A stretch of DNA of 64,000 nucleotides from an uncultured bacterium (GTDB taxonomy: Bacteria > Omnitrophota > Gorgyraeia > Zapsychrales > Aceulaceae): contig CALGLP010000013.1 of the NCBI GenBank assembly GCA_937930175.1, positions 267,764 through 331,763 on the forward strand, read 5' to 3'. The position numbers were made by a program, and so were the translations under genes. How positions within the stretch are numbered: position 1 is the stretch's first letter; each line of letters starts with the position of its first letter. The notes under the pieces are model-generated. The model was not told the DNA's origin. It saw nothing but the letters and a program-made list of their open reading frames with translations, and did not search any database. This document shows, in pieces, positions 47,339 through 62,511 of the stretch.

Positions 47339-47375
47339 GGGCTGACCCCGCCAACAGCGGGGTCAGCCCTTCTTA
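47339..47375 (+). terminator. intrinsic terminator GGGCTGACCCCGC-CAACA-GCGGGGTCAGCCC followed by TTCTTATATTT
   Basis: 13-bp stem plus a T-rich tail. Confidence 0.65.
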
Positions 47376-47392
47376 TATTTATATATAATTTC

Positions 47393-47420
47393 TTGACATC
47401 AGGTTTTTTTCTACTAAAAT
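47393..47420 (+). promoter_or_regulatory. candidate sigma-70 promoter TTGACA-N16-TAAAAT for the 47.5-63.9 kb co-directional cluster
   Basis: Consensus -35, 16-nt spacer, good -10. Lies 55 nt upstream of the acyl-CoA ligase ATG. Confidence 0.45.
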
Positions 47421-47475: not shown

Positions 47476-48981
47476 ATGGATATTAAACAACTTCTAATCG
47501 ATAAAGCGCGGATTTATTCGCAAAAGCCAGCCATTTTCTTTAAAGATCAGCCGATCAGCTTCAAAACTCTAGGTGAGCAGGTCTTTAAGTTGGCCAACGC
47601 CTTAAAGGTTTTAGGGGTTGCCAAAGGGGATAAGGTTGGGATATATCTGCCGAATTGTCCGGAATATATCTATAGCTATTTGGCTATCTTTTGTCTTGGT
47701 GCTACAGGTGTGCCGCTCGATTTTATGCTCAAGGAAGATGAGATCGCATCTTGCCTTACGCATGCTGAAGCAAAATACTTAATCTACATCCCCAAAGAAA
47801 ATCTATTGCCCCAAGAGCTTAAAGCCGTTGTCCCTAGCTTAAAAGAAATTATTAGTCTTCAGCCCCAGGTGGTTGGCACTCATGGGTACCATGAGCTTGT
47901 TGCGCAAGTCTCTTTAGATCCGATGAGCGTGTCTCTGAGTGAAAAAGATACAGCGCTTATTATGTACACCTCAGGCACGACCGGAAAGCCCAAAGGAGTT
48001 GTCTTGAATTATCGTCATCTCGATGGATCGCCGGCCGCGATGCATCATTTTGTGGATCTCAGTGATAAGGATGTGAAACTCTGTGCGCTTCCGTTAAGCC
48101 ACATCGCAGGGCTGATCTATATTCAAAATTGCCTTTTATTTGGGATCACGCTTGTTTTGATGGAGCGTTTTAATCCGGTGGAATTTTTGCGTCATGTCCA
48201 AGAATACAAGGTCACATGTTTTCATGTTGTGCCGGCGATGTACATGGCATTTTTGACATTGAAAAATATTGATAAATTTGATCTTGCGTCGATTCGCTGG
48301 ATGGTGGTTTTTGGCGCGCCAAACTCGCCGGATATGATGCGGCTGTTCCACAAGAACTGTTCGAATGCCAGGCTTTTGAACGGCTGGGGCATGACCGAGA
48401 CCTGTCCGCCTAATGTTGTGACACCCATGGACAGCGATAAGATCGAAAGCGTGGGCAAGCCGGCTCCGCATTGCGAGATACGGATTTTCGATGAAGAAGA
48501 AAAAGAATTAGCGCCAGGCGAGATCGGCGAAATCGTGATCAAGGGCTGGGTCGTGATGGATGGCTATTACAAAGATCCTGAGACAACAAAAAGCTTGATT
48601 TGGAACGGATGGTTTCATACCGGAGATTTAGGCCGTTTTGATGAGGAAGGATTTCTTTATATCGTTGGCCGCAAGAAAGAAATGATCAAGGTGGCCGGCC
48701 AGATCGTCTATGCCCCAGAGGTGGAAACCGTCTTGCACAAACATGTGGCGGTTGCTGAAGTCGCGGTCATTGGGGTTGCGGACAAACTGCGTGGTGAAGC
48801 GGTCAAGGCCTTTGTGACGCTTAAGCCTTCCGTCCTTGCGACCGCAGAAGAGTTGAGATTTTTTGCTAAAGACCATTTAGCGAATTTTAAAGTGCCTCAG
48901 GAGATTGTGATTTTATCCGAATTGCCGAAGAATAGATTGGGGAAGGTGGATAAGGAAAGATTGAAGATAGAGGGTAGATAA
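47476..48981 (+). CDS. AMP-dependent synthetase/ligase (acyl-CoA synthetase family)
   Basis: AMP-binding motif MYTSGTTGKPKGV, plus the GWGMTE and GDLGRFDEEGFLYIVGRKKEMIKV motifs. Confidence 0.85.
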   Translation: MDIKQLLIDKARIYSQKPAIFFKDQPISFKTLGEQVFKLANALKVLGVAKGDKVGIYLPNCPEYIYSYLAIFCLGATGVPLDFMLKEDEIASCLTHAEAKYLIYIPKENLLPQELKAVVPSLKEIISLQPQVVGTHGYHELVAQVSLDPMSVSLSEKDTALIMYTSGTTGKPKGVVLNYRHLDGSPAAMHHFVDLSDKDVKLCALPLSHIAGLIYIQNCLLFGITLVLMERFNPVEFLRHVQEYKVTCFHVVPAMYMAFLTLKNIDKFDLASIRWMVVFGAPNSPDMMRLFHKNCSNARLLNGWGMTETCPPNVVTPMDSDKIESVGKPAPHCEIRIFDEEEKELAPGEIGEIVIKGWVVMDGYYKDPETTKSLIWNGWFHTGDLGRFDEEGFLYIVGRKKEMIKVAGQIVYAPEVETVLHKHVAVAEVAVIGVADKLRGEAVKAFVTLKPSVLATAEELRFFAKDHLANFKVPQEIVILSELPKNRLGKVDKERLKIEGR

Positions 48982-49030: not shown

Positions 49031-49396
49031 ATGGCAATTCAAAAGTGTGAAGACTTAGAGGTTTATGCGTTGGCGTTTGATGCTGCAATGAGAATTTTTC
49101 AGCTAATAAAAGAATATCCAAAAGAAGAGACATACTCTTTAGTGAATCAGATAAGAATGTCGTCGAGGTCGGTCGCTGCCAATATTCGTGAAGGGTATGC
49201 TAAAAGAAAGTATCCAGATGTTTTTGTTAAGCATCTTAATGATGCGCTTGGATCGTCAGAAGAAACAGTAACATGGATCGATTTTAGTTGTCAGTGTGGT
49301 TATTTGCCAGAGAAGCAAGCAGTTGTTCTTAAGAAGACATATGCTTCCATTGGCGCTATGCTTTATCAATTGATGAAAGGGTGGCAAAAGTTTTAA
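49031..49396 (+). CDS. four-helix-bundle protein (TIGR02436 family), copy 2
   Basis: LEVYALAFDAAMRIF...LVNQIRMSSRSVAANIREGYAKR...LGSSEET. Confidence 0.8.
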   Translation: MAIQKCEDLEVYALAFDAAMRIFQLIKEYPKEETYSLVNQIRMSSRSVAANIREGYAKRKYPDVFVKHLNDALGSSEETVTWIDFSCQCGYLPEKQAVVLKKTYASIGAMLYQLMKGWQKF

Positions 49397-49452: not shown

Positions 49453-50205
49453 ATGACAATGCGTAAAGACATTCACTTGACCGGCCAGGATTTGATGCAC
49501 ATGGTGCAGCTGAGGCCGCAAGATATCGGTAAATACGCTCTTGTGCCAGGCCCCAAGGAGCGGCTCGATAGTCTTTTGAAAAAGATCGAGAATCCGGTTA
49601 AGAATTTTTCGTTCATGGAATATTCCATGTTTACCGGCACTTTCGCAGGAGCGAAGGTGACTGCGATCAATGGCGGACGATTTTCAGCGGATACGGCTAT
49701 CACGACGGAGATTCTCTGCAATGCGCAAGCCCAATACATGATCCGCATCGGCAGCTGCGGTGCTTTGCGCGAAGACATCAAGGTCGGGGATTTGATCGTG
49801 GCTGAAACCGCGATGCGCGGCGATGGCGTGACCCCGTATTATGTTAAAAATGATTTTAAGACTCAGGCTGATAGTGAGCTGACAAAGATCTTAAGCGATG
49901 TGGCGCAAGGCTCAGGCCTTAACGTCCATCAAGGCAAGGTGTGGTCCACGGATGCGATTTTGCGCGAGACGCGCGAGCATGTCGGCAAGGCTGTTGATGA
50001 GGGTTGTATCGCCGTGGACATGGTGACATCTGTTTTCTTAACCTTAGCGCAACTTTATAAAGTCAAAGCCGCGGTGATCCTTGCCGTCAGCGATAATATC
50101 ATTACCGGCGAAATGGGCTTTATGGATCCTAATTATTATATGGCTGAAGGATCAACGATTGGGATAGCGCTTAATTTGATAAAGAAGTTAGAGGGGAGAA
50201 GTTAG
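49453..50205 (+). CDS. PNP/UDP family-1 nucleoside phosphorylase (MTA / 5'-deoxyadenosine phosphorylase or nucleosidase-like)
   Basis: PF01048-type pattern (ALVPGPKERL, GGRFSADTAITTEIL, IRIGSCGAL, MRGDGVTPYY). Confidence 0.7.
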   Translation: MTMRKDIHLTGQDLMHMVQLRPQDIGKYALVPGPKERLDSLLKKIENPVKNFSFMEYSMFTGTFAGAKVTAINGGRFSADTAITTEILCNAQAQYMIRIGSCGALREDIKVGDLIVAETAMRGDGVTPYYVKNDFKTQADSELTKILSDVAQGSGLNVHQGKVWSTDAILRETREHVGKAVDEGCIAVDMVTSVFLTLAQLYKVKAAVILAVSDNIITGEMGFMDPNYYMAEGSTIGIALNLIKKLEGRS

Positions 50206-50223
50206 AAGGTAGAAGAAAGATAA
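50181..50223 (+). repeat. left arm of the inverted repeat flanking four-helix-bundle gene copy 3 (AAGAAGTTAGAGGGGAGAAGTTAGAAGGTAGAAGAAAG)
   Basis: Reverse-complementary to 50611..50635 (TTTCTCTCTTCTAACTTCTTTAAGG). Overlaps the last codons of the PNP gene. Confidence 0.6.
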
Positions 50224-50229
50224 GATCGA

Positions 50230-50610
50230 ATGCCGATTAAATGCTGCAAAGACTTGGAAGTGTACAATCGTTCGTTTCAAGTGGCGATGGTCATCTTTGA
50301 GAAAACCAAAATTTTTCCAGCTGAAGAGAAGTATTCTTTAGTTTCTCAGATTTTAAGATCGTCGCGTTCTGTTTCGGCAAACATTCGAGAAGGATATGCA
50401 AAGCGAAAATATCCAGATGTATTTGTAAGACATTTAAATGATGCTCTGGGTTCATCAGAAGAAACACAAACGTGGTTAGACTATTGTGAATCTTGCAGAT
50501 ATCTCGATCAGTTGACTTGTAAAAGATTAATAAAAGAATATGAGGAAATTTCAGCCATGCTTTTTGTTTTAATGAAATCGTGGCAGAAATTTGAGAAATC
50601 TAACGTCTAA
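50230..50610 (+). CDS. four-helix-bundle protein (TIGR02436 family), copy 3
   Basis: About 60% identical to copy 2 (LEVYNRSFQVAMVIF...SSRSVSANIREGYAKRKYPDVFV). Confidence 0.8.
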   Translation: MPIKCCKDLEVYNRSFQVAMVIFEKTKIFPAEEKYSLVSQILRSSRSVSANIREGYAKRKYPDVFVRHLNDALGSSEETQTWLDYCESCRYLDQLTCKRLIKEYEEISAMLFVLMKSWQKFEKSNV

Positions 50611-50635
50611 TTTCTCTCTTCTAACTTCTTTAAGG
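50611..50635 (+). repeat. right arm of the inverted repeat flanking copy 3
   Basis: See 50181..50223. Confidence 0.6.
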
Positions 50636-50640
50636 AACCT

Positions 50641-51609
50641 ATGACCGAATCTCCACTTTTTTGGCCAGCGAAATTTGAAGGCAAGACATTGCTTGTCCTT
50701 GATGAGACGCTGTTACCGGAAAAGATGTGCTATGTCAAAGTTCAGAATGTTGCGCAAGCCGTCAAGGTTATTCGTGAGATGAAGACCCGCGCCTTTGGCC
50801 AGTTTTTAGTTGTGCTAAGCACGTTTTTATTGGTACTTAAGAAAAATAAGACATGGAATGATGAGAAATTGATGGCTGAATTGCAAAAGACAGCCCAAGC
50901 CCTTAATGCTAGCCGTCCAACATTTCCGTTTGCAGAAGTAACTGGTATGATTATTGGTTGGGCTAAGAAAGACATGGAAAGTCATGTGCCTTTGCAGGTC
51001 GTGCTTCCTAAAAAGATCGATGGTTTCCTGCAAGGTATCCGTGGACGTCGTTTGGAGCGTGTACAAAGAATCGCGGATGTCTTGATGCAATATAATAATA
51101 TTTTAACGCATTGTAATGTGAGCGGCGAGCTCGCCATGGCAGCACAGCTTTGCAAGGCCAAGGGCAAGGAAATCAATTTCTTTGCAACGGAAACGCGTCC
51201 CTATTTTCAAGGTGCTAAATTAACGTGTTGGGAGCTCAATCGGGTCAAGGCACATGTCACGCTCGTTGCGGATAACGCTGTTGGAACGCTGTTGCGTGAT
51301 CATATGATTGATGCCGTGGTCATGGGATCCGATCGATCATGCGCCAACGGAGATGTCGCTAATAAAATTGGCAGCTATCAAATTGCTGTTGTGGCTAAAG
51401 AATTTGGCGTTCCAGTGTATGTGTTGACGCAGCCCTCGAATAAGATTCCAGCTGGCGCTGATATTCCCATTGAAGTGCGCCATGAAGACGAGCTTTTAAA
51501 ATTTAAGGGTAAGCGCATTACGCCAAAAGGCGTGAAGGGTTTTTATCCAGGGTTTGATGTTATTCCCAATAATCTAATCACACAAGCGATTGCCATCAAT
51601 GTTAATTGA
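50641..51609 (+). CDS. mtnA: eIF-2B alpha/beta/delta-family isomerase (S-methyl-5-thioribose-1-phosphate / 5-deoxyribose-1-phosphate isomerase, MtnA-like)
   Basis: ATETRPYFQGAKLTCWEL...VADNAVG...VMGSDRSCANGDVANKIGSY matches the MtnA / IF-2B family core. Confidence 0.7.
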   Translation: MTESPLFWPAKFEGKTLLVLDETLLPEKMCYVKVQNVAQAVKVIREMKTRAFGQFLVVLSTFLLVLKKNKTWNDEKLMAELQKTAQALNASRPTFPFAEVTGMIIGWAKKDMESHVPLQVVLPKKIDGFLQGIRGRRLERVQRIADVLMQYNNILTHCNVSGELAMAAQLCKAKGKEINFFATETRPYFQGAKLTCWELNRVKAHVTLVADNAVGTLLRDHMIDAVVMGSDRSCANGDVANKIGSYQIAVVAKEFGVPVYVLTQPSNKIPAGADIPIEVRHEDELLKFKGKRITPKGVKGFYPGFDVIPNNLITQAIAINVN

Positions 51610-52084
51610 AGAGAAAAAATCGATTGTTTTATTAAACGGCGTCTTTGAGGATGCTTTCTTTCATCTTTTAAAAGAACAAAAGATTAAGAAAGTGTATGTC
51701 CTTGAGGGTCGGCCGTATTTGGATGGAGCAAAGGCCTTGTGCTCAAAACTTATTAAGAATAGGATACAACCTGTTTTGATTGCAGATAATATGGCTGGGT
51801 TTCTTTTTTATAAAGATTTGGTGAAGGAGGTCTGGATTTCATACCAGGAGCCAGGTGACCAGAATATTTTAGCTAAGGTTGGGAGCCTTGTTTTAAGCGT
51901 GTTAGCGAAAAAGCATCAGGTGGCTGTTAAGGCCTTTCCGTCGGCCAAGCGTAAGAAATATATTGGTCATCCTAAAGATATTTTTAGCTTTGAGGGCAAG
52001 CGTGTTGCGGCCAAGGGTATTTATGGGTTTGTGCCGCTCTTAGAAGATGTCCCAAAAACATATTTATCGGAGATCTATTTATGA
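51590..52084 (+). CDS. truncated eIF-2B-family paralog (C-terminal Rossmann-like half only)
   Basis: VLEGRPYLDGAKALCSKL...VLIADNMAGFL...AKVGSLVLSVLAKKHQVAV parallels the C-terminal half of the preceding protein. Overlaps it by 20 nt. Confidence 0.5.
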   Translation: MPSMLIEEKKSIVLLNGVFEDAFFHLLKEQKIKKVYVLEGRPYLDGAKALCSKLIKNRIQPVLIADNMAGFLFYKDLVKEVWISYQEPGDQNILAKVGSLVLSVLAKKHQVAVKAFPSAKRKKYIGHPKDIFSFEGKRVAAKGIYGFVPLLEDVPKTYLSEIYL

Positions 52085-53076
52085 TCATCAACCGCGTGAA
52101 AAAAGAAATTATTGCATCTGGAAAACTGCTTTGGGAGAAAGACCTTGCTTCAGGGTTAAACGGCAATATCAGCTCTCGGGTGGACAACAAAAAGTATTTT
52201 ATTACTGGTCGCGGAACATGTTTAGGTCGGTTAAGCACCGCGGATATTGTTTTGACGGATGTAGAGGGAAACGTTTATGGTAAGGGTAAGCCGTCATCGG
52301 AAAAGACGTTGCATACGGCGATTTACAAGAATTTTCCTGAGGTGCAGGCGGTGATCCATACCCATTTAACGTATGCGGGTGGGTTTTTCCACGTGAATGA
52401 TACGCTTACACCCAGCACCTTTGAGTCCAGGCTTTATTTAGGAGAGGTTAAATGTGTCGCGCAGTTTACGCCGACAGTCACTGACATTGCGCCGGTTATC
52501 GAGGCGTTAAAGAAAAATAATATCATGGTTTTGAAAAACCACGGTGTTTTGGCCATGGGCAAAAACCTTTTTGACTGTTTTTTGCTGATCCAATGCCTGG
52601 AAGAGGCCGTGAAGATGGATGTGGTGAGCCAAATATATAGACAAGTTTCAAGTGAAAAGTTTCAGGTTTCAAGTAAAAATAAAGAACAAAAAGAGTCTAA
52701 AAGATTTAAGCTGTTTTCTAAAGAGCAGATCGATGAAATTGTGCGCCTTGTGAATGCGGATGAGCAATTAAAGAAGCTTGGTGAATCGACTAATATGACG
52801 ATGCGCCTGGCCGTCAAACTGGATGAGACAGGCCAGGCGTATTGCTTTGATTTTGAAAAGGGAAAGATCAAAAACGTGAGCAATGATGATAATGCTGAAT
52901 TTGTTGTATCAGCGCCGGAAAAAGTCTGGCGTGCTGTTTTTGCTCGTGAAATTGATCCCTTTGTAGCCACGACGCAAAAGAAAATGATCTTAAAAGGTGA
53001 CTTTGCCAAGATCTCCAAATGGTATGCGCCATGCTCGCGGCTTTTTGAGCTTTGGCAGCAAGCACCAGTGGAATAA
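52081..53076 (+). CDS. class II aldolase/adducin-domain protein fused to a C-terminal SCP2 sterol-carrier domain
   Basis: N-terminal aldolase_II pattern (SGLNGNISSRV...ITGRGTCLG...AVIHTHL) plus a C-terminal SCP2-like segment (YCFDFEKGKIKNV...MILKGDFAKISK). Confidence 0.75.
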   Translation: MIINRVKKEIIASGKLLWEKDLASGLNGNISSRVDNKKYFITGRGTCLGRLSTADIVLTDVEGNVYGKGKPSSEKTLHTAIYKNFPEVQAVIHTHLTYAGGFFHVNDTLTPSTFESRLYLGEVKCVAQFTPTVTDIAPVIEALKKNNIMVLKNHGVLAMGKNLFDCFLLIQCLEEAVKMDVVSQIYRQVSSEKFQVSSKNKEQKESKRFKLFSKEQIDEIVRLVNADEQLKKLGESTNMTMRLAVKLDETGQAYCFDFEKGKIKNVSNDDNAEFVVSAPEKVWRAVFAREIDPFVATTQKKMILKGDFAKISKWYAPCSRLFELWQQAPVE

Positions 53077-53080
53077 GGAA

Positions 53081-54556
53081 ATGAACGAACACAAATTATT
53101 TATCAACAATGAATGGATTGCTCCGCAAGGGAATGAATATCTTTCTTCTCTTAATCCATCGACGGGTGAAGTCATTGCCAAAATTGCCAAGGGAAAGGCT
53201 GTTGACGCCCAAAAAGCGATCGTGGCTGCTAAGCAGGCGTTTATTTCAGGTGTTTGGAGTTCTTTATCCGTTGAGAAACGCGGACAGGCTTTAGAAAAGA
53301 TTGCAGAAGTGATTCGTCAAAATGCTAAGGAGCTCGCGGAAATTGAGAGCCGCGACACCGGAAAGACCATTAAGCAGACAACATTTATTGATGTGCCGAC
53401 ATGTGCGGATACGTTTTCGTATTTTGCCAAGATTCGAAAAGAATTGGAAGCGCGAAAGCTTAACATTGCCGCGCCGGTGGATAGCAAGGTTTGCTATGAG
53501 CCAATCGGTGTTGTCGCCGCTATTGCGGCATGGAATTATCCCTTGATATTTTTTGGTTGGAAGGTGGCACCGGCATTGATAGCTGGCAATAGCGTTGTTT
53601 ATAAGCCTTCCAGCGTGGCAAGCCTTGCGGTTGTTCGTGTTTTTGAAATCATCGCAGGCATTTTACCCAAAGGCGTTTTAAATCTTGTCACAGGCGGTCG
53701 CGAGGTCGGCGAGGAATTGGCAAGATCAGTTGATGTTGATATGCTGACCTTTACCGGCGGTAATCAAGCGGGCCAGGAAGTCATGCGGCTTGCGGCAACA
53801 AATACCAAAAAACTTTGCCTAGAGCTGGGTGGGAAATCACCCAATATTGTTTTTGCGGATTGCGATATGGATGCCGCGATCGGCGGAACCATGTCGTCGA
53901 TCTTTATGAATCAGGGGCAGATGTGCGTGGCGGGTTCGCGCTTACTTTTAGAGGATAAAATTTATGATGAGTTTGTCGCCAAGTTATCTAAAGAAGCGCA
54001 GCGCCTAAAGATCGGCAATGCTTTGGATTATACAACTGAATTTGGCCCGTTGGTCAGCCGCGAGCATCGTGATGGTGTTTTGAAATTTATTGAGCAAGGG
54101 AAAAAGGAGGGCGCGCGGTTGGTCTACGGAGGCAAAATCGGCGCGGGCGCCGATTTTGATAAAGGGGCGTTTTTAGAGCCCACCATTTTTGCCGATGTTC
54201 AGAATTCTATGGCCATTGCGCAGGAAGAAATTTTTGGTCCGGTGTTGTCTGTGATCAAATTCTCTTCCGCCGAAGAGGCGATCACGATTGCCAACGATAC
54301 AAAGTACGGTCTGGCAGCCATGGTGTGGACCAAGGATAAAGAAAAAGCCGATAGCGTTGCGCGCCAGCTTCGCTGCGGAACGGTCTGGATCAATACCTAC
54401 GGCGGATTTTACAACGAAGCACCCTTTGGCGGATACAAGCAAAGTGGGTTTGGCAGGGAATTAGGAGTTGAAGGCTTGCTTGATTGCATGCAAATCAAGC
54501 ATGTCTGTCGCGACACAACACCTGGCGGAAAATCACTTGCGTCGAGTTGGTTTTGA
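53081..54556 (+). CDS. NAD(P)-dependent aldehyde dehydrogenase
   Basis: ALDH motifs: VTGGREVGEELA, the LELGGKSP glutamate box and the catalytic Cys in GQMCVAGSR. Confidence 0.85.
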   Translation: MNEHKLFINNEWIAPQGNEYLSSLNPSTGEVIAKIAKGKAVDAQKAIVAAKQAFISGVWSSLSVEKRGQALEKIAEVIRQNAKELAEIESRDTGKTIKQTTFIDVPTCADTFSYFAKIRKELEARKLNIAAPVDSKVCYEPIGVVAAIAAWNYPLIFFGWKVAPALIAGNSVVYKPSSVASLAVVRVFEIIAGILPKGVLNLVTGGREVGEELARSVDVDMLTFTGGNQAGQEVMRLAATNTKKLCLELGGKSPNIVFADCDMDAAIGGTMSSIFMNQGQMCVAGSRLLLEDKIYDEFVAKLSKEAQRLKIGNALDYTTEFGPLVSREHRDGVLKFIEQGKKEGARLVYGGKIGAGADFDKGAFLEPTIFADVQNSMAIAQEEIFGPVLSVIKFSSAEEAITIANDTKYGLAAMVWTKDKEKADSVARQLRCGTVWINTYGGFYNEAPFGGYKQSGFGRELGVEGLLDCMQIKHVCRDTTPGGKSLASSWF

Positions 54557-54685
54557 CTGCATGACCCGCGGACAGGGCTTATTTTTCTGATGACAAAGAT
54601 GGCGGGGATAGTAAAGAAAGTTATGGGGTTTCATAAAACCCGTATAACTTAAAACTTGCTACTTATAACTCTTGGAGGATTATTT

Positions 54686-56143
54686 ATGAAGCTTTTATTT
54701 CTTACCCCACCGATTCAAGGCTGGGTTACCCATGGGTTACATAAGGCCCCGAATCAATATTACGCGCAGTTAGCGGCTTATATTCGCATGAAAGGCGTGG
54801 CAGAGGTGAGCGTTTTGGATGCCAAGGCCCTCGACCTTACTTATGATCAAATGATGGCACAAGTGAAAGAATCTGCGCCGGATGTGGTCATGATGGGGGA
54901 TATGCTGCACTCAACGGGCGGCTTGGCCATCGTTTGGCATTTTAATGAAAGTGCTCGTTTGATCAAACAAGCTTTGCCATTAACAAAGATTGTGTGCGGC
55001 GGGCTTTGGTATTCGGCCTACTATCAAGAAGAAATGAAACGAAGTCCTCAGATCGATTTTATTTTAAGCGGAGAAGGTGAGTTGACGCTAGAAGAGCTTC
55101 TTAGCAATCTGAAACATAAGACAAAAGAGTTCAAGGATATTGCTGGGCTTGTTTCGCGTGGCGACGATGGTGCGATTTGCGCCGGGCCTCATCGAGGATT
55201 GATTCCTGATTTAAATGTTCTCCCGATGCCAGCGTATGATCTTTTCCCTATGGATCAATATGTGGGGCACACGTATTGGAAACCTTTTGCGGAACTTATG
55301 ACGTCGCGCGGTTGTCCAGGCGGATGTAATTTTTGTTATGAGTGGAGCATGTATGATCCGCGTTTTAGTAAGACGGATTTTGTTTCTTGGAGAGGTTTTT
55401 CCGCGCAAAGAATTTGCAATGAGTTTGATCTTCTGGAAAAAACATACGGCGTCAAGGTCGTGGTGATTCAAGATGACGCCTTTAATGTGAGTAAGGATAA
55501 AGTAAGGCAATTTTGTGAAGAGAAAATAAAAAGGGGCAATCAGATCAAATGGATCTGTTTAGGTCGGGCAGATGATTGGGCCAATCAGCTCGATCTTGTT
55601 CCTTTGATGGCCAAAGCTGGATTTTTTATGGGGCTTGTGGGCATTGAAGTGTCATCGGATGAAGAACTTAAGAAGCTTGGTAAAGGTGTTACGTTGGCTC
55701 AAATTAAAAAGACGGTGGACACTTTTCGAGCCAACAATATTGCTACGGTGGGTACGGTTTTGATCGGGCTTGAGGATGATGATGAAGCGGCGATCAAGAA
55801 ACGCTTACAAGTCGCTGAAGAGATCGATCCTGATATTTTAGCGTTGGATTATGTGATCCCTGTTCCGGGTTCTCAGCCTTGGGGTAAGGCGATCGCTTAC
55901 GGATGGATTGATCCGCAAAAAATTAATTTAAAAGATTGGGATTTTCATCAACCTGTTATTCCGACCAAGCATCTTTCGATTCAAGACGTGGGGCGTTTGG
56001 GAAGCTGGTGCATGCGGGAATTTTATTCGAAGCCTGAGCGTATTCATCGGATCATGGATAGCGATTATGATCTATTAGCCAAATTGTGCGTGAAAGATTT
56101 TATGAGCAATATCGCAAAGTTCGAACAGCGTTCTTCGGCTTAA
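54686..56143 (+). CDS. B12-binding-domain radical SAM protein (class B radical SAM)
   Basis: N-terminal cobalamin-binding Rossmann-like region followed by CPGGCNFC (CxxxCxxC). Confidence 0.8.
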   Translation: MKLLFLTPPIQGWVTHGLHKAPNQYYAQLAAYIRMKGVAEVSVLDAKALDLTYDQMMAQVKESAPDVVMMGDMLHSTGGLAIVWHFNESARLIKQALPLTKIVCGGLWYSAYYQEEMKRSPQIDFILSGEGELTLEELLSNLKHKTKEFKDIAGLVSRGDDGAICAGPHRGLIPDLNVLPMPAYDLFPMDQYVGHTYWKPFAELMTSRGCPGGCNFCYEWSMYDPRFSKTDFVSWRGFSAQRICNEFDLLEKTYGVKVVVIQDDAFNVSKDKVRQFCEEKIKRGNQIKWICLGRADDWANQLDLVPLMAKAGFFMGLVGIEVSSDEELKKLGKGVTLAQIKKTVDTFRANNIATVGTVLIGLEDDDEAAIKKRLQVAEEIDPDILALDYVIPVPGSQPWGKAIAYGWIDPQKINLKDWDFHQPVIPTKHLSIQDVGRLGSWCMREFYSKPERIHRIMDSDYDLLAKLCVKDFMSNIAKFEQRSSA

Positions 56144-56196
56144 GCGATAAGTATTTCAGGAAATATTTATTTAACCATTTAATCACAGGAGGGCGC

Positions 56197-57117
56197 ATGT
56201 CTGGATTTATCTTCTTTTTGATCGTTGTTTTTGTTATATTTTTTATTTCTTCAACGAGCCAGGGGTCAAGGCGTAATCCTAATGTGATCGATATGGATTT
56301 TACGCAAGCTTTTTTTAGGAAAGGGCGCTTGGCGATTGTTCTCGTTGCCCTTGGGCTCATCTGTTTTGTTGTCCTTGTGCGTTGTGTTCGTGTTGTGCCA
56401 GCGGGTACGGTTGGCGTTTATGATATTTTTGGTAAAGTTTCTGCGGATGAACGAAAGCCAGGACTCAATTTTATTAACCCTTTTGCGAATTTAGTTTTGA
56501 TGAATGTGAAGACCGAGGAATTGACCGAAAACATGCCTGTTCCCTCCAAAGAGGGATTGTCCATTGCTTTAGATGTTTCGATTCTTTATCGTCTAGATCC
56601 TTCTAAGGCAAGTGATATTTATCAAAGCGTTGGTACTAACTACCGAGAGATCGTTGTTGTGCCCCAGTTCCGTTCAGCATGCCGAGGCGCGACGGTAGGT
56701 TATGAAGCTAAAGCTCTTTATACGTCTAATCGTGAAGAAATTTCACAAAAAATTCATAGCGAGCTTAAAGAAATGTTAGCTGAGCGTGGGGTTATTTTAG
56801 AAAAAGTTCTTCTTCGTTCTATTAAAATGCCTCCAACCGTGGCTAATGCCATTGAATTAAAGCTGAAATTTGAGCAAGAATCTGAACAAATGAAATTTGT
56901 TCTTCAGAAAGAAAGACAGGAAGCTGAACGTCGCGTGATCGAAGCTGAAGGGATCGCCAAGGCCCAGGAAATCATCAACAAGACTTTGACGCCCGCGTAT
57001 TTGCAATTAGAGGCGATCCAGGCGCAAAAGAAAATGGCGGAAAGCCCAAATCACACAACTGTTTATATTCCTTCGGGTGATAATGGTATCCCGCTGATTC
57101 GTAACATTGACAAATAG
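56197..57117 (+). CDS. SPFH/band-7 (prohibitin/stomatin-like) membrane protein
   Basis: N-terminal TM segment, an SPFH domain (VVPAGTVGVYDIFGK...), and a C-terminal coiled-coil. Confidence 0.8.
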   Translation: MSGFIFFLIVVFVIFFISSTSQGSRRNPNVIDMDFTQAFFRKGRLAIVLVALGLICFVVLVRCVRVVPAGTVGVYDIFGKVSADERKPGLNFINPFANLVLMNVKTEELTENMPVPSKEGLSIALDVSILYRLDPSKASDIYQSVGTNYREIVVVPQFRSACRGATVGYEAKALYTSNREEISQKIHSELKEMLAERGVILEKVLLRSIKMPPTVANAIELKLKFEQESEQMKFVLQKERQEAERRVIEAEGIAKAQEIINKTLTPAYLQLEAIQAQKKMAESPNHTTVYIPSGDNGIPLIRNIDK

Positions 57118-57134: not shown

Positions 57135-57389
57135 ATGCAATGGGAAAAAACAACACAGCAGAAGTATGAACTGATGATTTCTAAAATTCCTTTGTTCCAT
57201 CGCGAGATCACCAAACAAGTTGTTCCTCTGAAAGCTGAGGAAAACGCCAAAGCGCGTGGGGCGTTGGCGATTGAAGAAGGCGATGTGGTTCAGGCTTTTT
57301 TAAGCGAAGTCCCTAAGGCTTTCTTCAGCATGATGATTCGCTTGATGGATGACGTGGGGCTTGATTATAAAAAAGAAATTAGAAAATAG
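57135..57389 (+). CDS. small protein with a PCP_red-like pattern (standalone domain related to the C-terminus of protochlorophyllide reductase subunit B), tentative
   Basis: WEKTTQQKYELMISKIPLFHREITKQVV...ARGALAIEEGDVVQAF resembles the PF08369 pattern (W.EEA...L..IP.F.R). Not verifiable here. Confidence 0.3.
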   Translation: MQWEKTTQQKYELMISKIPLFHREITKQVVPLKAEENAKARGALAIEEGDVVQAFLSEVPKAFFSMMIRLMDDVGLDYKKEIRK

Positions 57390-57499: not shown

Positions 57500-58498
57500 A
57501 TGAGCATTGCAATTATTGGCGCTGGTGCCATTGGATCTGTCGCAGCAGCTTTTCTTTCCAAAGCTGGCTTGGATGTTGTCTTGATTGGAAAAAAAGAACA
57601 GGTTGATTTTATTAATCAGCATGGGTTGACTGTCCGAGCTGTTCATGGAAGCGAGCATTTTAAAATTAGGGCCTTGCCGCATCTTGACAAGCCTTATGAT
57701 CTTGTTATTTTTACGGTCAAGACGCAGGATCTCGAAGACGCATATCATGCAAATCATGAATATTTAGATCATGGTCTTATTTTGACGAGCCAAAATGGTG
57801 TTCAGGCGGATAATATCTTGAGCTCCCATTTTGAGCGGGAAAAGATGTTTTCAAGTATTGTGATGTTTGGCGCAACGTATATCAATCCTGGTCAGGTGAT
57901 CTTTAATTTTGAAGGAAGCTGGATCATTGGAAAACCTTTCACGAATGTTGACCCTAAGACCCATGAGATCGCGGAGACCTTGGGGAAGGCTTTTCCCGTT
58001 GTTGTTTCAACCAATATCATGGGGATGAAGTGGCTTAAGCTTTTTGTGAATTTTAATAATTGTCTTTGCGCGGTGCTAGGGAAGTCGATGCAGGAAACAT
58101 TTGCGGATATGGATTTTTGTCGTGCGAGCATTATGCTTTTGAAAGAGGGCCTGGGCGTTGTTGAGCGGGCGCATATTGAACTGGTGTCGTTACCTGATTT
58201 TCCCGTTGATAGAATAGATGGGCTTGCGGCCATGCCGCTTGATCAAGCGGCGGCGATCATGCACAAAACATTGACATCGCTTAGCAAGGAACCGGTGTAT
58301 GGTTCAATTTTGCAAAGCGTGATGCGCAAGCGGACAAGTGAAATTGATTTTATCAACGGTGAGATTGTTCGTTTGTCCAGACAAATGCGCCAGGATGTGC
58401 CCCTCAATGAACGCATCGTGGATTTGGTGCATGAGGTTGAGCGGACAGGAAAATTTACAAGTGTTGAAGACGTGAAGAAGATTTTTAAGCTAGGATAA
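57500..58498 (+). CDS. 2-dehydropantoate 2-reductase family (ApbA/PanE-like NADPH oxidoreductase)
   Basis: N-terminal Rossmann motif IAIIGAGAIGS and ketopantoate-reductase family length and pattern. Could serve pantothenate synthesis or act as a ketoreductase in the cluster. Confidence 0.7.
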   Translation: MSIAIIGAGAIGSVAAAFLSKAGLDVVLIGKKEQVDFINQHGLTVRAVHGSEHFKIRALPHLDKPYDLVIFTVKTQDLEDAYHANHEYLDHGLILTSQNGVQADNILSSHFEREKMFSSIVMFGATYINPGQVIFNFEGSWIIGKPFTNVDPKTHEIAETLGKAFPVVVSTNIMGMKWLKLFVNFNNCLCAVLGKSMQETFADMDFCRASIMLLKEGLGVVERAHIELVSLPDFPVDRIDGLAAMPLDQAAAIMHKTLTSLSKEPVYGSILQSVMRKRTSEIDFINGEIVRLSRQMRQDVPLNERIVDLVHEVERTGKFTSVEDVKKIFKLG

Positions 58499-58580: not shown

Positions 58581-59858
58581 ATGAAAGAAAGTTTACCCAT
58601 GAAAAAAAGACGAGTCGTAGTGACAGGAGTTGGGGTTGTGTCACCTAATGGTATTGGCAATGAAGCTTGCTGGAAGGGTATGATCAACGGCGTTTCCGGC
58701 GTCAAGCGCGTTACGGAGTTTGATGTGTCGATGTTCATGACCCAGGTGGCGGCGCAGGTCAGGGATTTTGATCCGCACAAGCTTGGACTAACGCACGATG
58801 AAGCCGTGCGTATGGATCGTTATGTTCAATTTGCTGTTGTTGCGGCGCGCATGGCGCTGGAAGATTCCAAGATGGATTTAAGTAAAGTCAATAAAGAGCG
58901 CATGGGGGTTTCGCTTGCCAATGCGATTTGTGGCACCAAATATATGGAAGAAGAGTTTGCGCTTGTGACCGACAGTGGCAAGGAAGCCATTGATCCGGCC
59001 AAGGTGCGACCGGATCTTTACGACGCGGCGATGTTTAATACGCCTTCGAGTGAGATTTCGGCGAAGTATGGCCTGAAAGGAATCTGCAATACGATTTCAA
59101 CGGGGTGTACGGCGGGGACCGATTCTGTCGGGTTTTCTTTTGAAACGATTCGCGATGGCGATATCGATATCATGATTACTGGTGCTTCCGAGGCACCGAT
59201 CACGCCCATTACATTTGGTGCTTTTGATGTGGTTAATGTTTTGGCTGTGCGCAATGATGAACCTGAAAAAGCCTCGAGGCCTTTTGATAATGAACGCAAT
59301 GGATTTGTTATTTCAGAAGGCTGCGGCATTTTGATCCTCGAAGAGCTTGAGCACGCCAAGGCGCGCGGGGCCAAGATCTATTGCGAGGTCATTGGTTTTG
59401 GAACAACGTGCAATGCCTATCACATGACGGATCTGCCATCTGATGGCGAACCGATGAAGGATTGTATTGTTTTGGCCATGGAAGATGCAGACATTAAGCC
59501 GCAAGATATTGATTATATTAATGCACATGGCTCGTCGACTAGACAAAATGATGTCTTTGAAACCAATGCCTATAAAATGGCGTTAGGGGATTGGGCGTAC
59601 AAGATTCCTATTAGCTCGCTCAAGTCTATGATCGGACACCCTCTAGCTGGCGCTAATGGTGTTGAGCTAGCGGTGGGTGCGTTGATTTTTGAACGTAACA
59701 TGTTGCCGCCAACCATTAATCAGGTGCATCCTGATCCGGCATGCGATTTGGATTATGTGCCCAATGTCGCGCGTCCTAAGGTTGTCAATTGTATGCTTAA
59801 AACTTCGAGTGGTTTTTCTGGAGTGCATTCGTCGATGGTATTAAGGAGGTATAAGTAA
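58581..59858 (+). CDS. beta-ketoacyl synthase (KS; FabF/KS-alpha-like, catalytic Cys-His-His intact)
   Basis: Active-site context ISTGCTAGTDSV and the His motifs INAHGSST and MIGHPLAGANG. Start may be the ATG at 58599. Confidence 0.85.
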   Translation: MKESLPMKKRRVVVTGVGVVSPNGIGNEACWKGMINGVSGVKRVTEFDVSMFMTQVAAQVRDFDPHKLGLTHDEAVRMDRYVQFAVVAARMALEDSKMDLSKVNKERMGVSLANAICGTKYMEEEFALVTDSGKEAIDPAKVRPDLYDAAMFNTPSSEISAKYGLKGICNTISTGCTAGTDSVGFSFETIRDGDIDIMITGASEAPITPITFGAFDVVNVLAVRNDEPEKASRPFDNERNGFVISEGCGILILEELEHAKARGAKIYCEVIGFGTTCNAYHMTDLPSDGEPMKDCIVLAMEDADIKPQDIDYINAHGSSTRQNDVFETNAYKMALGDWAYKIPISSLKSMIGHPLAGANGVELAVGALIFERNMLPPTINQVHPDPACDLDYVPNVARPKVVNCMLKTSSGFSGVHSSMVLRRYK

Positions 59859-59860
59859 AA

Positions 59861-59888
59861 ATGTGTTATGTGAGATGTGATATGTGAG
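59861..59888 (+). repeat. left arm of the inverted repeat flanking four-helix-bundle gene copy 4 (ATGTGTTATGTGAGATGTGATATGTGAG)
   Basis: Reverse-complementary (with a few mismatches) to 60316..60341 (CACCTGACACATATCACATGACACAT). Confidence 0.65.
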
Positions 59889-60285
59889 AGGCAAAGAAAA
59901 GACAGTGAGTGTGAATTATCATCTATATAATTTTGATTTTGAAAAGCTTGATGTGTATCAGGAAGCCTTAGATTTTGCGAATGATGTATTTAAAATTACG
60001 AATGGTTTTCGAAGAGAGATCCAGTATTCTTTGGGAGATCAATTTAGGAGAGCTGCGCTTTCCATCTGCAATAACATCGCTGAGGGAAGTCAGAAAACAA
60101 CCCGGGGGAGAAAACAGTTTTATCATTATGCCCTGGATTCTGCTAGGGAATGTATTCCGATGATCAGTTTGTCCTTAAAGCAAAAAGAGATCTCACCTGA
60201 TGTTGAGATGCAGTTAAGGGGAAGGTGCTTGAAGATTTGTAATATGGTCTATAGACTCATACGATCTGTCGATGACAAGGGTTGA
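59884..60285 (+). CDS. four-helix-bundle protein (TIGR02436 family), copy 4; inserted between the KS and CLF-like genes
   Basis: LDVYQEALDFANDVF...LGDQFRRAALSICNNIAEGSQK...ALDSAREC. Start codon uncertain (GTG at 59884 or 59911). Confidence 0.7.
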   Translation: MRGKEKTVSVNYHLYNFDFEKLDVYQEALDFANDVFKITNGFRREIQYSLGDQFRRAALSICNNIAEGSQKTTRGRKQFYHYALDSARECIPMISLSLKQKEISPDVEMQLRGRCLKICNMVYRLIRSVDDKG

Positions 60286-60315
60286 CATTCCGGGCGTTGA
60301 TTTTTGTTTTACATT

Positions 60316-60341
60316 TCACCTGACACATATCACATGACACA
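60316..60341 (+). repeat. right arm of the inverted repeat flanking copy 4
   Basis: See 59861..59888. Confidence 0.65.
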
Positions 60342-60361
60342 TTTTTAAGAAAGGTTTTTCA

Positions 60362-61612
60362 ATGAAGAAGATTGCTATTACAGGAATGGGCATTGTGTCC
60401 CCCAGCGGGATCGATGAAAGAAAATTTTGGGCCAATATTAGCCATGGCCGCTCAGCGGTTAAGAAAATAGAACGGTTTGATGCGTCAAAATATCCATCGC
60501 GTATCGCCGGACAAGTGCATGAGCTAGATGCTTATAGCAACGTATCGTCGAGACTTCTGAAGAAAATTGATGTTTTTTCGCATATGGCGCTTGTAGCTTC
60601 AGAAATTGCTATTCAAGACGCCAAGCTTGACATGGAAAAGGAAAATTTAAAACGCGCTGGTATTTTTGCCGGTAATGCGATTGGTGGTTGGCTCTACGCT
60701 GAAACAGAGCTACGCGATATGTATATCGAGGGGCGTGAGGGGGTTAGTCCTTTTATGGCCTCGGCATGGTTTCCTGCCGCGCCTCAGGGGCAGATTTCCA
60801 TTCATTATAAAATGAAAGGCTATAGCAAGACGATTGTCTCGGATCGCGCGAGTGCCTTGATGGCGATTGCTTATGGTGCGAAAAATCTTAACGATGGAAA
60901 AAATGATTTTATCTTGGCGGGGGGCATGGAGGCACCGGTGTCGCCGTATGGACTTTTGTGCTGCAATACGTCGGGTGTTCTCAGCAAGCGAAATGATGAC
61001 CCAGAGACTGCCTATCGTCCTTTTGATAAAACACGTGATGGTTTGGCTATTGCCGAAGGCGCCGGTATTCTTATACTAGAAAAGGAAGAACGTGCTAAAA
61101 AGCGTGGTGTGCCTATTAATGGATATATTATTGGCTATGGAACGACCACGGATGGCATTGATCGCATCGAACCGGCTAGTGATGGACTTCAGCTCGCGCG
61201 GGCGATTGAACTCGCCCTTGATGACGCAGAGCTTGAGCCTGGCCAGATTGATTATGTTTGTTTGGACGGTGTCGCGACACCGATTGGCGATATTTCGGAA
61301 ACGCGCGGTATCAAAAAGGCTTTTGGTGCGCATGCGAAAAAGATCCCTATGTCTGCGCCTAAGTCTGTTTTTGGTAATATGTTGGGAGCTTGTGGGGCTG
61401 TGGATGTTGCGGCGACCCTTTTAGCCATGGAGCATGCAACAGTTCCACCGACGATCAATTTGACGCATCCGGATCCTGATTGCGATTTGGATTATTGTCC
61501 TAATAAAGCGCAGAGCAAAGAAATCAAATATGCTCTTGTGATTAATCGCGGACGCGGCGGGATCAATTGTGTTTTAGTTTTAGAAAAGGCCAATGAAAAT
61601 GAATTTCTTTAA
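60362..61612 (+). CDS. ketosynthase-like protein lacking the catalytic triad (chain-length-factor / KS-beta-like)
   Basis: Full thiolase-fold KS length and a GxGxG N-terminus. Aligning with the upstream KS, the active-site Cys position is SDRASA, the first His motif is LDGVATPIG, and the second is GNMLGACGAV (His replaced by Asn). No C/H/H remains. Confidence 0.8.
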   Translation: MKKIAITGMGIVSPSGIDERKFWANISHGRSAVKKIERFDASKYPSRIAGQVHELDAYSNVSSRLLKKIDVFSHMALVASEIAIQDAKLDMEKENLKRAGIFAGNAIGGWLYAETELRDMYIEGREGVSPFMASAWFPAAPQGQISIHYKMKGYSKTIVSDRASALMAIAYGAKNLNDGKNDFILAGGMEAPVSPYGLLCCNTSGVLSKRNDDPETAYRPFDKTRDGLAIAEGAGILILEKEERAKKRGVPINGYIIGYGTTTDGIDRIEPASDGLQLARAIELALDDAELEPGQIDYVCLDGVATPIGDISETRGIKKAFGAHAKKIPMSAPKSVFGNMLGACGAVDVAATLLAMEHATVPPTINLTHPDPDCDLDYCPNKAQSKEIKYALVINRGRGGINCVLVLEKANENEFL

Positions 61613-62274: not shown

Positions 62275-62511
62275 ATGAGCGTAGAAGAAAAAGTTAAAGG
62301 TATTTTTAAAGATGTTTTAGATATTGGGCCAGATGAGATTAAAGAAGATGTGAAGCTTGATGTCGCGCTTGGTATTGACTCAACGGAAATGGTGGAGATC
62401 ACGGTGGCTCTTAAAAAAGCGTTCAATTTGACGATCCCTAATAATCAATTTAAGAAAACGCAGACGTTTAATGAGCTTGTTGCGTTTATCAAGGCTCAAG
62501 GAGCGCAGTAG
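62275..62511 (+). CDS. acyl carrier protein
   Basis: 78 aa with the phosphopantetheine-attachment motif LGIDSTEMVE; GGAGGG RBS. Confidence 0.85.
   Translation: MSVEEKVKGIFKDVLDIGPDEIKEDVKLDVALGIDSTEMVEITVALKKAFNLTIPNNQFKKTQTFNELVAFIKAQGAQ

Follow-up and report, generated by a model that had tools for sequence, protein, structure and literature searches.

A conserved operon of uncultured Omnitrophota joins aromatic polyketide synthase genes with a nucleoside-splitting module

The genes at 49453-56143 belong to one conserved operon of uncultured Omnitrophota, in which the genes of an aromatic polyketide synthase are combined with a nucleoside-splitting module. The operon is wider than this span, extending from an acyl ligase gene (47476) to past the end of the window (the whole 64,000-nucleotide stretch of DNA that was analysed). 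Our preferred interpretation, to which we assign a probability of roughly 0.4, is that the phosphorylase, the isomerase together with a half-length companion, an aldolase-SCP2 fusion, the aldehyde dehydrogenase and the ligase constitute a DHAP-shunt variant dedicated to the adjoining type II polyketide pathway.

A sequence-only reading of this DNA had described six consecutive genes at 49453-56143, namely a nucleoside phosphorylase of the PNP family, an MtnA-like sugar-1-phosphate isomerase, a half-length IF-2B-family protein, a class II aldolase-SCP2 fusion, an aldehyde dehydrogenase and a B12-radical SAM enzyme. Profile matches confirm all six at the same positions, on the plus strand, within the following set of features.

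47339-47369, plus strand: strong terminator-like hairpin (consensus scan only)
47393-47420, plus strand: promoter-like site, the best of the region, TTGACA-16-TAAAAT, 3' of the hairpin (consensus scan only)
47476-48981, plus strand: FadD/MenE-like acyl-AMP/CoA (or ACP) ligase (AMP-binding, E 2.6e-87)
49031-49396, plus strand: four-helix-bundle protein (23S IVS protein family), just upstream of the phosphorylase, absent from 40 of 40 relatives' loci
49453-50205, plus strand: DeoD-like purine nucleoside phosphorylase of a distinct subfamily (PNP_UDP_1, E 6.8e-35)
50230-50610, plus strand: second four-helix-bundle insertion cassette, between phosphorylase and isomerase, lacking in relatives
50641-51609, plus strand: MtnA-like sugar-1-phosphate isomerase paralog (IF-2B, E 5.4e-48)
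51590-52084, plus strand: half-length IF-2B protein, 164 residues (IF-2B, E 3e-10, profile positions 124-211 of 280 only)
52081-53076, plus strand: class II FucA/DrdA-type aldolase (Aldolase_II, E 7e-39, residues 9-179) fused to SCP2 (E 2.9e-07, residues 226-313)
53081-54556, plus strand: NAD(P)-dependent aldehyde dehydrogenase of the hydrolytic type (Aldedh, E 2.1e-169; reading frame open from a GTG at 52997)
54656-56143, plus strand: B12-binding and Radical_SAM enzyme, distantly BchE/HpnJ-like, with a CX3CX2C motif
56086-57117, plus strand: Band 7/SPFH membrane protein, a lineage-specific insertion present in 1 of 40 relatives
57135-57389, plus strand: DUF2621-like small protein, conserved operon member
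57500-58498, plus strand: ApbA/PanE-type reductase, conserved operon member
58581-59858, plus strand: type II polyketide ketosynthase (KS)
60362-61612, plus strand: inactive chain-length-factor-like partner (CLF)
62275-62511, plus strand: ACP
62604-63407, plus strand: PF04199 cyclase
63438-63881, plus strand: SRPBCC polyketide cyclase

Neighbouring genes of the operon overlap or abut, and the hairpin and the promoter-like site upstream of the ligase (47339-47420) likely mark its start; past the window end, genes for an MFS transporter, an SDR and an Amidohydro_2 protein extend the cluster. The order from ligase to cyclase is unchanged in all 40 long loci of relatives, and because it recurs there the arrangement of the module is not due to chance. 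In a distant family (f18) the same approximately 15 gene families are co-located in permuted order, with the radical SAM gene between CLF and ACP, and in some other relatives this gene lies between the isomerase and its half-length companion. Such linkage is evidence of a common pathway, not of the direction of flow through it. The four-helix-bundle genes at 49031-49396, which is lineage-specific, and 50230-50610 are insertions outside the pathway, and a third insertion of this kind sits between the KS and CLF genes (in the region 58581-61612).

The phosphorylase had been taken for an MtnP-like enzyme, an assignment that has to be replaced. It scores 17 bits against the MTAP model TIGR01694 (cut-off 275), the type to which FlB of the fluoroacetate pathway belongs, and 100.7 bits against the DeoD-type model, which makes it DeoD/Udp-like. 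Arg24, Arg87, Ser90 and Asp204 are retained and an RGDGVTPYYV motif is conserved, with Val at the position of Glu181 and Glu at that of Arg43. In E. coli DeoD, Glu181 and Arg43 make the contacts to the hydroxyls of the ribose and to the phosphate, and with both gone the sugar may therefore differ from plain 5-deoxyribose. Specificity residues of a purine or uridine phosphorylase, which the sequence-only reading counted against a shunt, are thus found in part, as the DeoD purine-type Asp204; the phosphorylase step of the shunt may still be carried out by this non-MtnP subfamily.

We considered whether the module might instead serve ordinary purine nucleoside catabolism, converting ribose-1-phosphate to ribulose-1-phosphate, then to DHAP and glycolaldehyde, and finally to glycolate, in a route similar to the final part of the non-carboxylating pentose bisphosphate pathway. 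The DeoD-like phosphorylase with its purine Asp204 is consistent with this idea, as is the aldolase's weak score of 65.9 bits (cut-off 300) on the model for haloarchaeal ribulose-1-phosphate aldolase. We regard it as improbable nonetheless, given the replacement of the sugar-site Glu181, a linkage to synthase, radical SAM enzyme, ligase and SCP2 that it leaves unexplained, and the fact that, to our knowledge, MtnA relatives are not established as direct ribose-1-phosphate isomerases.

The isomerase scores 218 bits against the MtnA model TIGR00512, under the equivalog cut-off of 279, and has both the catalytic Cys (THCN) and Asp (GSDR), which are conserved in 18 orthologs. The truncated paralog that follows it, noted earlier from the letters alone, is real and conserved, being present in 40 of 40 long loci; its translation probably begins at the ATG at 51599. 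It consists of the C-terminal Rossmann-like domain alone, without the full two-domain IF-2B/MtnA architecture, and has lost both catalytic positions, the Cys site reading LLNG and the Asp site SYQE. In a model of the complex it associates with the full-length isomerase, of which we predict it to be a non-catalytic partner. It is absent from family f18, and is therefore dispensable for the chemistry.

The aldolase-SCP2 fusion likewise proved to be genuine, with the SCP2 domain above threshold (31.2 bits for PF02036, against a cut-off of 21.3). The aldolase occupies residues 1-190, a disordered linker residues 190-204 and the SCP2 domain about residues 205-331, the last modelled as an alpha/beta SCP2 fold with a pLDDT of about 90. 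Of the 91 Omnitrophota genomes in which the fusion protein has a match, about 79 match it over its entire length; the fusion is kept in 27/27 aligned sequences, and Atlas clusters bear the joint Aldolase_II and SCP2 annotation. When the aldolase residues were compared with those of MtnB and of Ald2/FucA, the zinc and phosphate motifs were found to be of the FucA type (G28-N29-S31, E74, H93, H95 and H154 are invariant across the 27 sequences); the scores are closer to FucA and DrdA than to MtnB, and the fold matches FucA and the 5-deoxyribulose-1-phosphate aldolase DrdA (6btd/6btg). An MtnB dehydratase identity was ruled out, the match to TIGR03328 reaching 63.7 bits against a cut-off of 137 and covering the N-terminal half of the protein only. 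SCPx, MFE-2, the UbiJ/UbiT carriers and the C-terminal domain of alkylsulfatase are examples of lipid-handling SCP2 domains, and they resemble the present protein in that a C-terminal SCP2 fold is joined to, or works with, an enzyme for a hydrophobic substrate. The class II aldolase partner is a feature of the Omnitrophota fusion, whose ligand binding is putative, and we found no description in the literature of SCP2 fused to such an aldolase.

Both the catalytic Glu (ELGGKS) and Cys (GQMC) of the aldehyde dehydrogenase are present. The ligase adjoins the module in every one of the 40 long loci. It is similar to FadD and MenE, not to Acs: it scores 462 bits against the long-chain ligase model PRK06187 and 263-342 bits against MenE models, and its closest solved structures are FadD5 and MenE. 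All five enzymes of the proposed line keep their catalytic residues and have an assigned family, and judged by their motifs the phosphorylase, isomerase, aldolase and dehydrogenase are predicted to be catalytically intact.

In the pathway that we propose, the radical SAM enzyme (54656-56143) would probably supply the nucleoside substrate, freeing a nucleoside of the 5'-deoxyadenosine type or, most simply, 5'-deoxyadenosine itself. The DeoD-like phosphorylase would take off adenine to leave a 5-deoxypentose-1-phosphate, the isomerase, probably as a heterodimer with its inactive companion, would give the ketose-1-phosphate, and the zinc aldolase would split this into DHAP and an aldehyde. The dehydrogenase would then oxidise the aldehyde to an acid and the ligase could join the acid to CoA or ACP as a thioester, providing a primer for a synthase whose CLF cannot prime classically. 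The SCP2 domain could hold a hydrophobic substrate tail, or hand the aldehyde to the dehydrogenase. The data show the gene content, the intact catalytic motifs and the conserved linkage; the order of these reactions, the identity of the nucleoside and the passage of the acid to the synthase are what we infer.

The same reaction logic, ending in DHAP and an aldehyde, is known from the DHAP shunt (PMC10986504; PMC6079011), in which MtnP, or MtnN plus MtnK, is followed by MtnA and Ald2/DrdA. The isomerase (IF-2B/MtnA) and aldolase (class II, FucA-like) superfamilies are common to both systems. Whereas the shunt cleaves the nucleoside with MtnP or MtnN/MtnK, the Omnitrophota cluster has a DeoD-like, hexameric-type phosphorylase; its isomerase, which scores under the MtnA cut-off, is accompanied by a truncated, inactive partner, and the cluster adds SCP2 on the aldolase, a dehydrogenase and an acyl ligase, all within a polyketide operon in a genome with canonical MtnP (C13:142639-143532, 317 bits) and MtnA (435 bits) elsewhere.

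These canonical genes bear on the proposal of the sequence-only reading that the module is a DHAP shunt for housekeeping salvage or detoxification of 5'-methylthioadenosine and 5'-deoxyadenosine that merely adjoins a radical SAM gene. The three shunt activities and the dehydrogenase are indeed encoded, neither ARD (mtnD) nor a RuBisCO-like protein was found in the 96% complete genome, and the cluster's aldolase is the only class II aldolase that a profile search of the genome returned; on this view it might also take substrate from the canonical MtnP and MtnA. In addition, 5'-deoxyadenosine inhibits radical SAM enzymes (PMC8102628). However, the phosphorylase and isomerase of the module repeat functions that are encoded elsewhere, and canonical MtnA was found in 257 of 301 sampled Omnitrophota, module present or not, including two families in which no module was found (15 of 15 genomes in f7, 16 of 17 in f8; module in 0/15 and 0/17). 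Among the sampled genomes, those that carry the module encode two IF-2B-type genes and the rest one. Because canonical MtnA is widespread regardless of the module, the latter is an extra paralog set and not a general salvage route. The housekeeping proposal, made without regard to the type II polyketide operon and its acyl ligase, also leaves the ligase, the SCP2 domain and the half-length protein unexplained, and is doubtful in our view; the chemistry and enzyme set stand, their assignment to general salvage does not. As the organism's route for SAM by-products the module was rejected, since canonical MtnA and MtnP lie elsewhere and it is always found with the polyketide genes, even after rearrangement. 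Classical methionine salvage (MtnB/C/D) was rejected on the MtnB score and the failure to find ARD or a RuBisCO-like protein.

A biosynthetic use of the same four steps, phosphorylase, MtnA-like isomerase, fuculose-type aldolase and aldehyde dehydrogenase, is provided by the fluoroacetate/4-fluorothreonine pathway of Streptomyces cattleya and Nocardia brasiliensis, which converts a 5'-modified 5'-deoxyadenosine to a C2 acid (PMC3999930). That pathway needs a SAM_HAT halogenase to make a 5'-halo-5'-deoxyadenosine, whereas the Omnitrophota genome has no match to the fluorinase/chlorinase-type family (SAM_HAT/DUF62, PF01887); conversely, the fluoroacetate pathway is without the SCP2 domain, ligase and polyketide synthase that the Omnitrophota operon has.

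On the synthase side, the KS/CLF pair, the ACP, the aromatic cyclases and the stand-alone acyl ligase all lie in one operon, and the ligase would presumably load the ACP. In the CLF the active-site Cys is replaced by Asp-Arg and both His are lost; the Gln usual in type II synthases is lacking. A ligase-primed type II polyketide is exemplified by benzoate priming in enterocin, and we know of no described type II cluster with a nucleoside phosphorylase, isomerase and aldolase set. Ligase-primed and early-branching non-actinomycete type II synthases (den, PMC7693217) share with the operon KS, CLF, ACP, TcmN-like and OxyN-type cyclases, and a stand-alone acyl ligase as possible primer loader; the den paper mentions no such nucleoside-processing set. 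The chemistry encoded by the module is that of the known DHAP shunt, here in extra specialised copies.

Against the dedicated shunt, five enzymes look a costly way to acetate-level units while acetyl-CoA is abundant, and the SCP2 fusion and FadD/MenE-like ligase point to a substrate more hydrophobic than acetaldehyde or acetate. A different arrangement, which we consider unlikely, would have the radical SAM enzyme place the 5'-deoxyadenosyl radical on a hydrophobic polyketide or lipid intermediate, with the module trimming the adduct. A route of this kind, to which we give the same low weight, would remove adenine, isomerise the sugar and cut DHAP away to leave -CH2-CHO and then -CH2-COOH for activation by the ligase, while SCP2 binds the tail. 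The conserved fusion, the resemblance of the ligase to long-chain, aryl-acid and MenE ligases, the dedicated and diverged phosphorylase and isomerase paralogs with an altered sugar-site residue, the occurrence of the module solely alongside the synthase, and weak matches of the phosphorylase to HpnG and futalosine hydrolase are all consistent with this. HpnH and MqnE do add the 5'-deoxyadenosyl radical to their substrates, but no enzyme of either type was found in the genome, nor any other radical SAM gene conserved in the cluster; SCP2 could have other roles, and we know of no B12-domain radical SAM enzyme that adenosylates a substrate. If the adenosyl group is nevertheless the two-carbon donor, SAM would act as a carboxymethyl donor, in an oxygen-independent C-C extension undescribed for polyketides.

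The DHAP-shunt-like genes form part of a closely packed run on the plus strand (47.4-64 kb), which continues past the window end with genes for an MFS transporter, an SDR, a small PC4-like protein and an Amidohydro_2 protein. Gene calls and profile matches bear out the six-gene content that the sequence-only reading gave to 49453-56143, with the corrections described below. The features of the run are as follows.

Features of the operon (ISO, full-length MtnA-like isomerase paralog; ISOh, half-length IF-2B protein; KS, ketosynthase; CLF, chain length factor; ACP, acyl carrier protein)
47476-48981, +: AMP-binding acyl ligase
49031-49396, 50230-50610 and 59884-60285: three paralogous four-helix-bundle genes (23S IVS protein family), in intergenic gaps of the operon
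49453-50205, +: PNP_UDP_1 phosphorylase
50641-51609, +: ISO, full-length IF-2B/MtnA-like
51590-52084, +: ISOh, 164-aa IF-2B fragment
52081-53076, +: class II aldolase fused to SCP2
53081-54556, +: aldehyde dehydrogenase
54656-56143, +: B12-binding-domain radical SAM enzyme
56086-57117, +: Band 7/SPFH gene, between the radical SAM and DUF2621 genes
57135-57389, +: DUF2621-like small protein, followed by an ApbA-type reductase
3' part of the run, +: KS, CLF-like protein, ACP, PF04199 cyclase and SRPBCC cyclase

Directly 5' of the ligase gene, the sequence contains a strong terminator-like hairpin and the region's best promoter-like site. The ISO and ISOh genes overlap by 20 nt and the ISOh and aldolase genes by 4 nt, and only 5 nt separate the aldolase stop codon from the dehydrogenase ATG. 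The four-helix-bundle genes are missing from all 40 of the longer relatives' loci that we compared for gene order ("long loci"), and the Band 7 gene occurs in one of them; we therefore regard both as local insertions. The four-helix-bundle genes are recent arrivals, by which the operon seems not to be broken. From its listed start, the Band 7 gene overlaps the end of the radical SAM gene by 58 nt.

The order ligase, phosphorylase, ISO, ISOh, aldolase-SCP2, dehydrogenase, radical SAM, DUF2621, reductase, KS and CLF, and then ACP and cyclase, is common to the long loci (40/40, from species-level genomes), with the radical SAM gene at that place in 36. Family f18 of the Omnitrophota, where the aldolase is about 40-45% identical, has a different arrangement: DUF2621, reductase, KS, CLF, radical SAM, ACP, cyclase, SRPBCC, in some cases MFS, SDR and Amidohydro_2, and after these phosphorylase, ISO, aldolase-SCP2, dehydrogenase and ligase. 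Two other genomes have ISO and ISOh on either side of the radical SAM gene. A linkage that outlasts rearrangement in this way is good evidence that the module and the polyketide genes act in one shared pathway. Plain housekeeping salvage fits these linkage data poorly and we consider it improbable; the same data fit ordinary nucleoside catabolism no better, and we rate that reading lower still. One f18 locus (L027:3065-4222, genome G119) carries an extra, non-B12 radical SAM gene of 385 aa, overlapping the phosphorylase gene at the latter's start; no counterpart was found in the four further f18 loci examined.

Among 301 sampled Omnitrophota genomes, 91 encode the aldolase-SCP2 protein (about 79 over the full query length), and its distribution tracks clades, with 37/41 genomes in f18, 7/7 in f24, 0/15 in f7 and 0/17 in f8. 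Canonical MtnA scores above cut-off in 257 of the same genomes, including 15/15 in f7 and 16/17 in f8, and module-bearing genomes have two IF-2B-type genes where others have one. Together, these counts imply that the module is an add-on and not the MTA route of the phylum. A scan of the genome collection returned 367 relatives, and the 80 loci listed all come from Omnitrophota or from MAGs generically labelled uncultured Planctomycetales.

The source assembly itself (Omnitrophota, 1.99 Mb, 96% complete) encodes, elsewhere, a canonical MtnA adjoining metG (435 bits), a canonical MtnP (317 bits) and a canonical SAH hydrolase. Our search of the genome found neither ARD nor a RuBisCO-like protein, and classical methionine salvage is thus incomplete, which favors shunt-type chemistry. 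The sequence-only reading had looked to such a gap as support for the shunt, and to that extent it stands, but the phosphorylase and isomerase of the module duplicate functions that the canonical MtnP and MtnA already provide. The aldolase-SCP2 protein is the only class II aldolase of the genome. On another contig, an ORF reported as 26,689 aa contains a weak crotonase-like match (G000:C23 ~55694-56347, locus L119); such an ORF would belong with the giant genes reportedly described for Omnitrophota in a preprint (bioRxiv 10.1101/2023.11.21.568195). No RNA data were found for the stretch; the runs that contain it are DNA only, from sludge and wastewater.

The phosphorylase is DeoD/Udp-like: it scores 100.7 bits for DeoD and 99 for Udp, against no more than 17 for MTAP. 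An alignment with DeoD-type structures from Bacillus shows that it retains Arg24, Arg87, Ser90 and the purine-specific Asp204, a position anchored by the D204N mutant entry of the same structure table. The earlier description of this enzyme as MtnP-like must therefore be abandoned. The nearly universal Glu181 is replaced by Val and Arg43 by Glu, residues whose roles we take to be those of their counterparts in E. coli DeoD; both changes, and an RGDGVTPYYV motif, are common to 16 orthologs.

ISO retains the MtnA catalytic Cys (THCN) and Asp (GSDR) in 18/18 aligned orthologs and scores 218 bits on the MtnA equivalog, below its cut-off of 279. ISOh comprises the C-terminal Rossmann-like domain only, with both catalytic residues gone. 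It is no decaying fragment, for a protein of about 160 aa recurs in the long loci of the order (40/40) as well as in several lineages further away. Family f18 has no ISOh, and there the ISO and aldolase genes abut. A model of the ISO-ISOh complex gives an ipSAE of 0.92 versus 0.49 for the best control, with at least 94% of contacts common to three runs and partner pLDDT of at least 90; 58 of 80 solved complexes attain the ipSAE mark used, as do 2 of 110 mismatched pairs. The modeled interface joins equivalent C-domain surfaces and reproduces the contact seen in homodimers of solved MtnA/eIF2B relatives, so that the pass may stem from likeness to those structures. The model thus supports, without demonstrating, an ISO-ISOh heterodimer.

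Whether the aldolase domain is of the MtnB or the FucA kind had been posed as a check, and the answer is FucA: the phosphate pocket and zinc ligands of that type are retained, the top scores are on FucA models, and the MtnB model matches over the N-terminal half only. All 27 sequences compared have the residues G28, N29, S31, E74, H93, H95 and H154. In a predicted structure (mean pLDDT 89.8, pTM 0.84), the domain superposes on FucA and on the 5-deoxyribulose-1-phosphate aldolase of Bacillus thuringiensis, and a disordered linker (residues 190-204) connects it to a well-conserved SCP2 domain. Our literature search found no description of such a fusion. The Atlas includes two similar Aldolase_II-SCP2 clusters, most commonly labeled Binatota, and three distant fusions (27-32% identity) occur without phosphorylase and isomerase, one of them paired with an AMP-binding ligase. 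On two metagenome contigs (L115:10001-12177 and L116:5356-7532), a distant homolog with Aldolase_II as its sole annotation (31% identity, aligned to query residues 6-329) overlaps an AMP-binding ligase gene and adjoins cobalamin uptake/synthesis genes; phosphorylase and isomerase are absent from both loci. The aldolase-ligase pairing thus recurs outside the operon of the module.

The Glu and Cys residues of hydrolytic ALDHs are present in the dehydrogenase, which is nearest to betaine-aldehyde and ALDH1/2-type enzymes, and the ligase is nearest to long-chain, aryl-acid and MenE ligases, not to acetyl-CoA synthetase. The radical SAM enzyme carries a CX3CX2C motif and bears only a distant likeness to BchE, HpnJ, AprD4, TokK and OxsB. 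In the CLF-like protein (60362-61612), Asp-Arg occupies the Gly-Cys position of the KS, both catalytic His are lost, and the Gln that chain length factors typically have is missing. In most arrangements (40/40 long loci) the DUF2621-like gene comes after the radical SAM gene, and in f18 it comes before the reductase gene; its product may be a partner of one or the other enzyme.

With fair confidence, the enzymology of five module proteins can be read from sequence. A purine nucleoside would undergo phosphorolysis, the resulting aldose-1-phosphate would be isomerized to a ketose-1-phosphate, and aldol cleavage would yield DHAP and an aldehyde, which would be oxidized to an acid that is then adenylated and thioesterified. 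The first three steps are those of the DHAP shunt (PMC10986504; PMC6079011). An extension beyond the shunt has a parallel in the fluoroacetate pathway (PMC3999930), to which the operon here adds one further step. For the entry and destination of the route, we infer, with a probability of about 0.4, that the operon's own radical SAM enzyme makes the nucleoside and that the acid then primes the synthase. A CLF with neither the Cys nor the usual Gln would fit such a primer, as would the place of the ligase as first gene of the operon. The SCP2 domain, the type of ligase and the altered phosphorylase would be best accounted for if the radical SAM enzyme instead adenosylated a hydrophobic intermediate, on which the module would leave behind a carboxymethyl group; we know of no precedent for adenosylation by a B12-domain radical SAM enzyme, and think this route rather unlikely.

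Other routes were considered and rejected. Adenosylhopane processing (HpnH/HpnG logic) and a futalosine-like route are excluded because their partner genes are missing: no squalene-hopene cyclase was found and HpnH was not above cut-off, and MqnA/MqnD are absent from this genome and from 61 genomes of the order. SAH phosphorolysis is not needed given the SAH hydrolase, and the genome has no SAM_HAT gene (SAM halogenase) for a halogenated nucleoside route.

A MenA prenyltransferase gene (G000:C18:74439-75332; L031:1411-2304) in a genome with no MenB or MenD above cut-off suggested the cluster as supplier of a quinone head group. As a general replacement for menaquinone head-group synthesis this was rejected, since in many relatives the cluster co-occurs with a canonical MenB beside MenA, and across families the presence of MenA-like genes does not follow that of the module (f13: MenA 5/5, module 0/5; f19: MenA 0/5, module 5/5). 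The other genomes of the family (7/7) likewise have MenA, and MenB, MenD and MqnA/D were not found in them; in most other families of the order MenB lies directly beside MenA. This pattern suggests that the family lost head-group synthesis and possibly scavenges a naphthoate.

DHAP-shunt chemistry is known as a salvage route or carbon source, and our literature search found no type II polyketide cluster described with a nucleoside phosphorylase, isomerase and aldolase set. The chemistry is familiar; its recruitment, the fusions and the pseudo-enzyme partner are not. A diverged second copy of the shunt, with a new aldolase-SCP2 fusion, a pseudo-enzyme subunit and an acyl ligase, has been fixed within a conserved aromatic-polyketide operon, and annotation of its genes as housekeeping mtnA, mtnB or deoD would be misleading. 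The module is a concrete, testable set of enzymes. Hundreds of species of uncultured Omnitrophota with tiny genomes retain the operon. Taken together, this points to a SAM-derived nucleoside being used in biosynthesis, either to supply a primer or as C2 donor.
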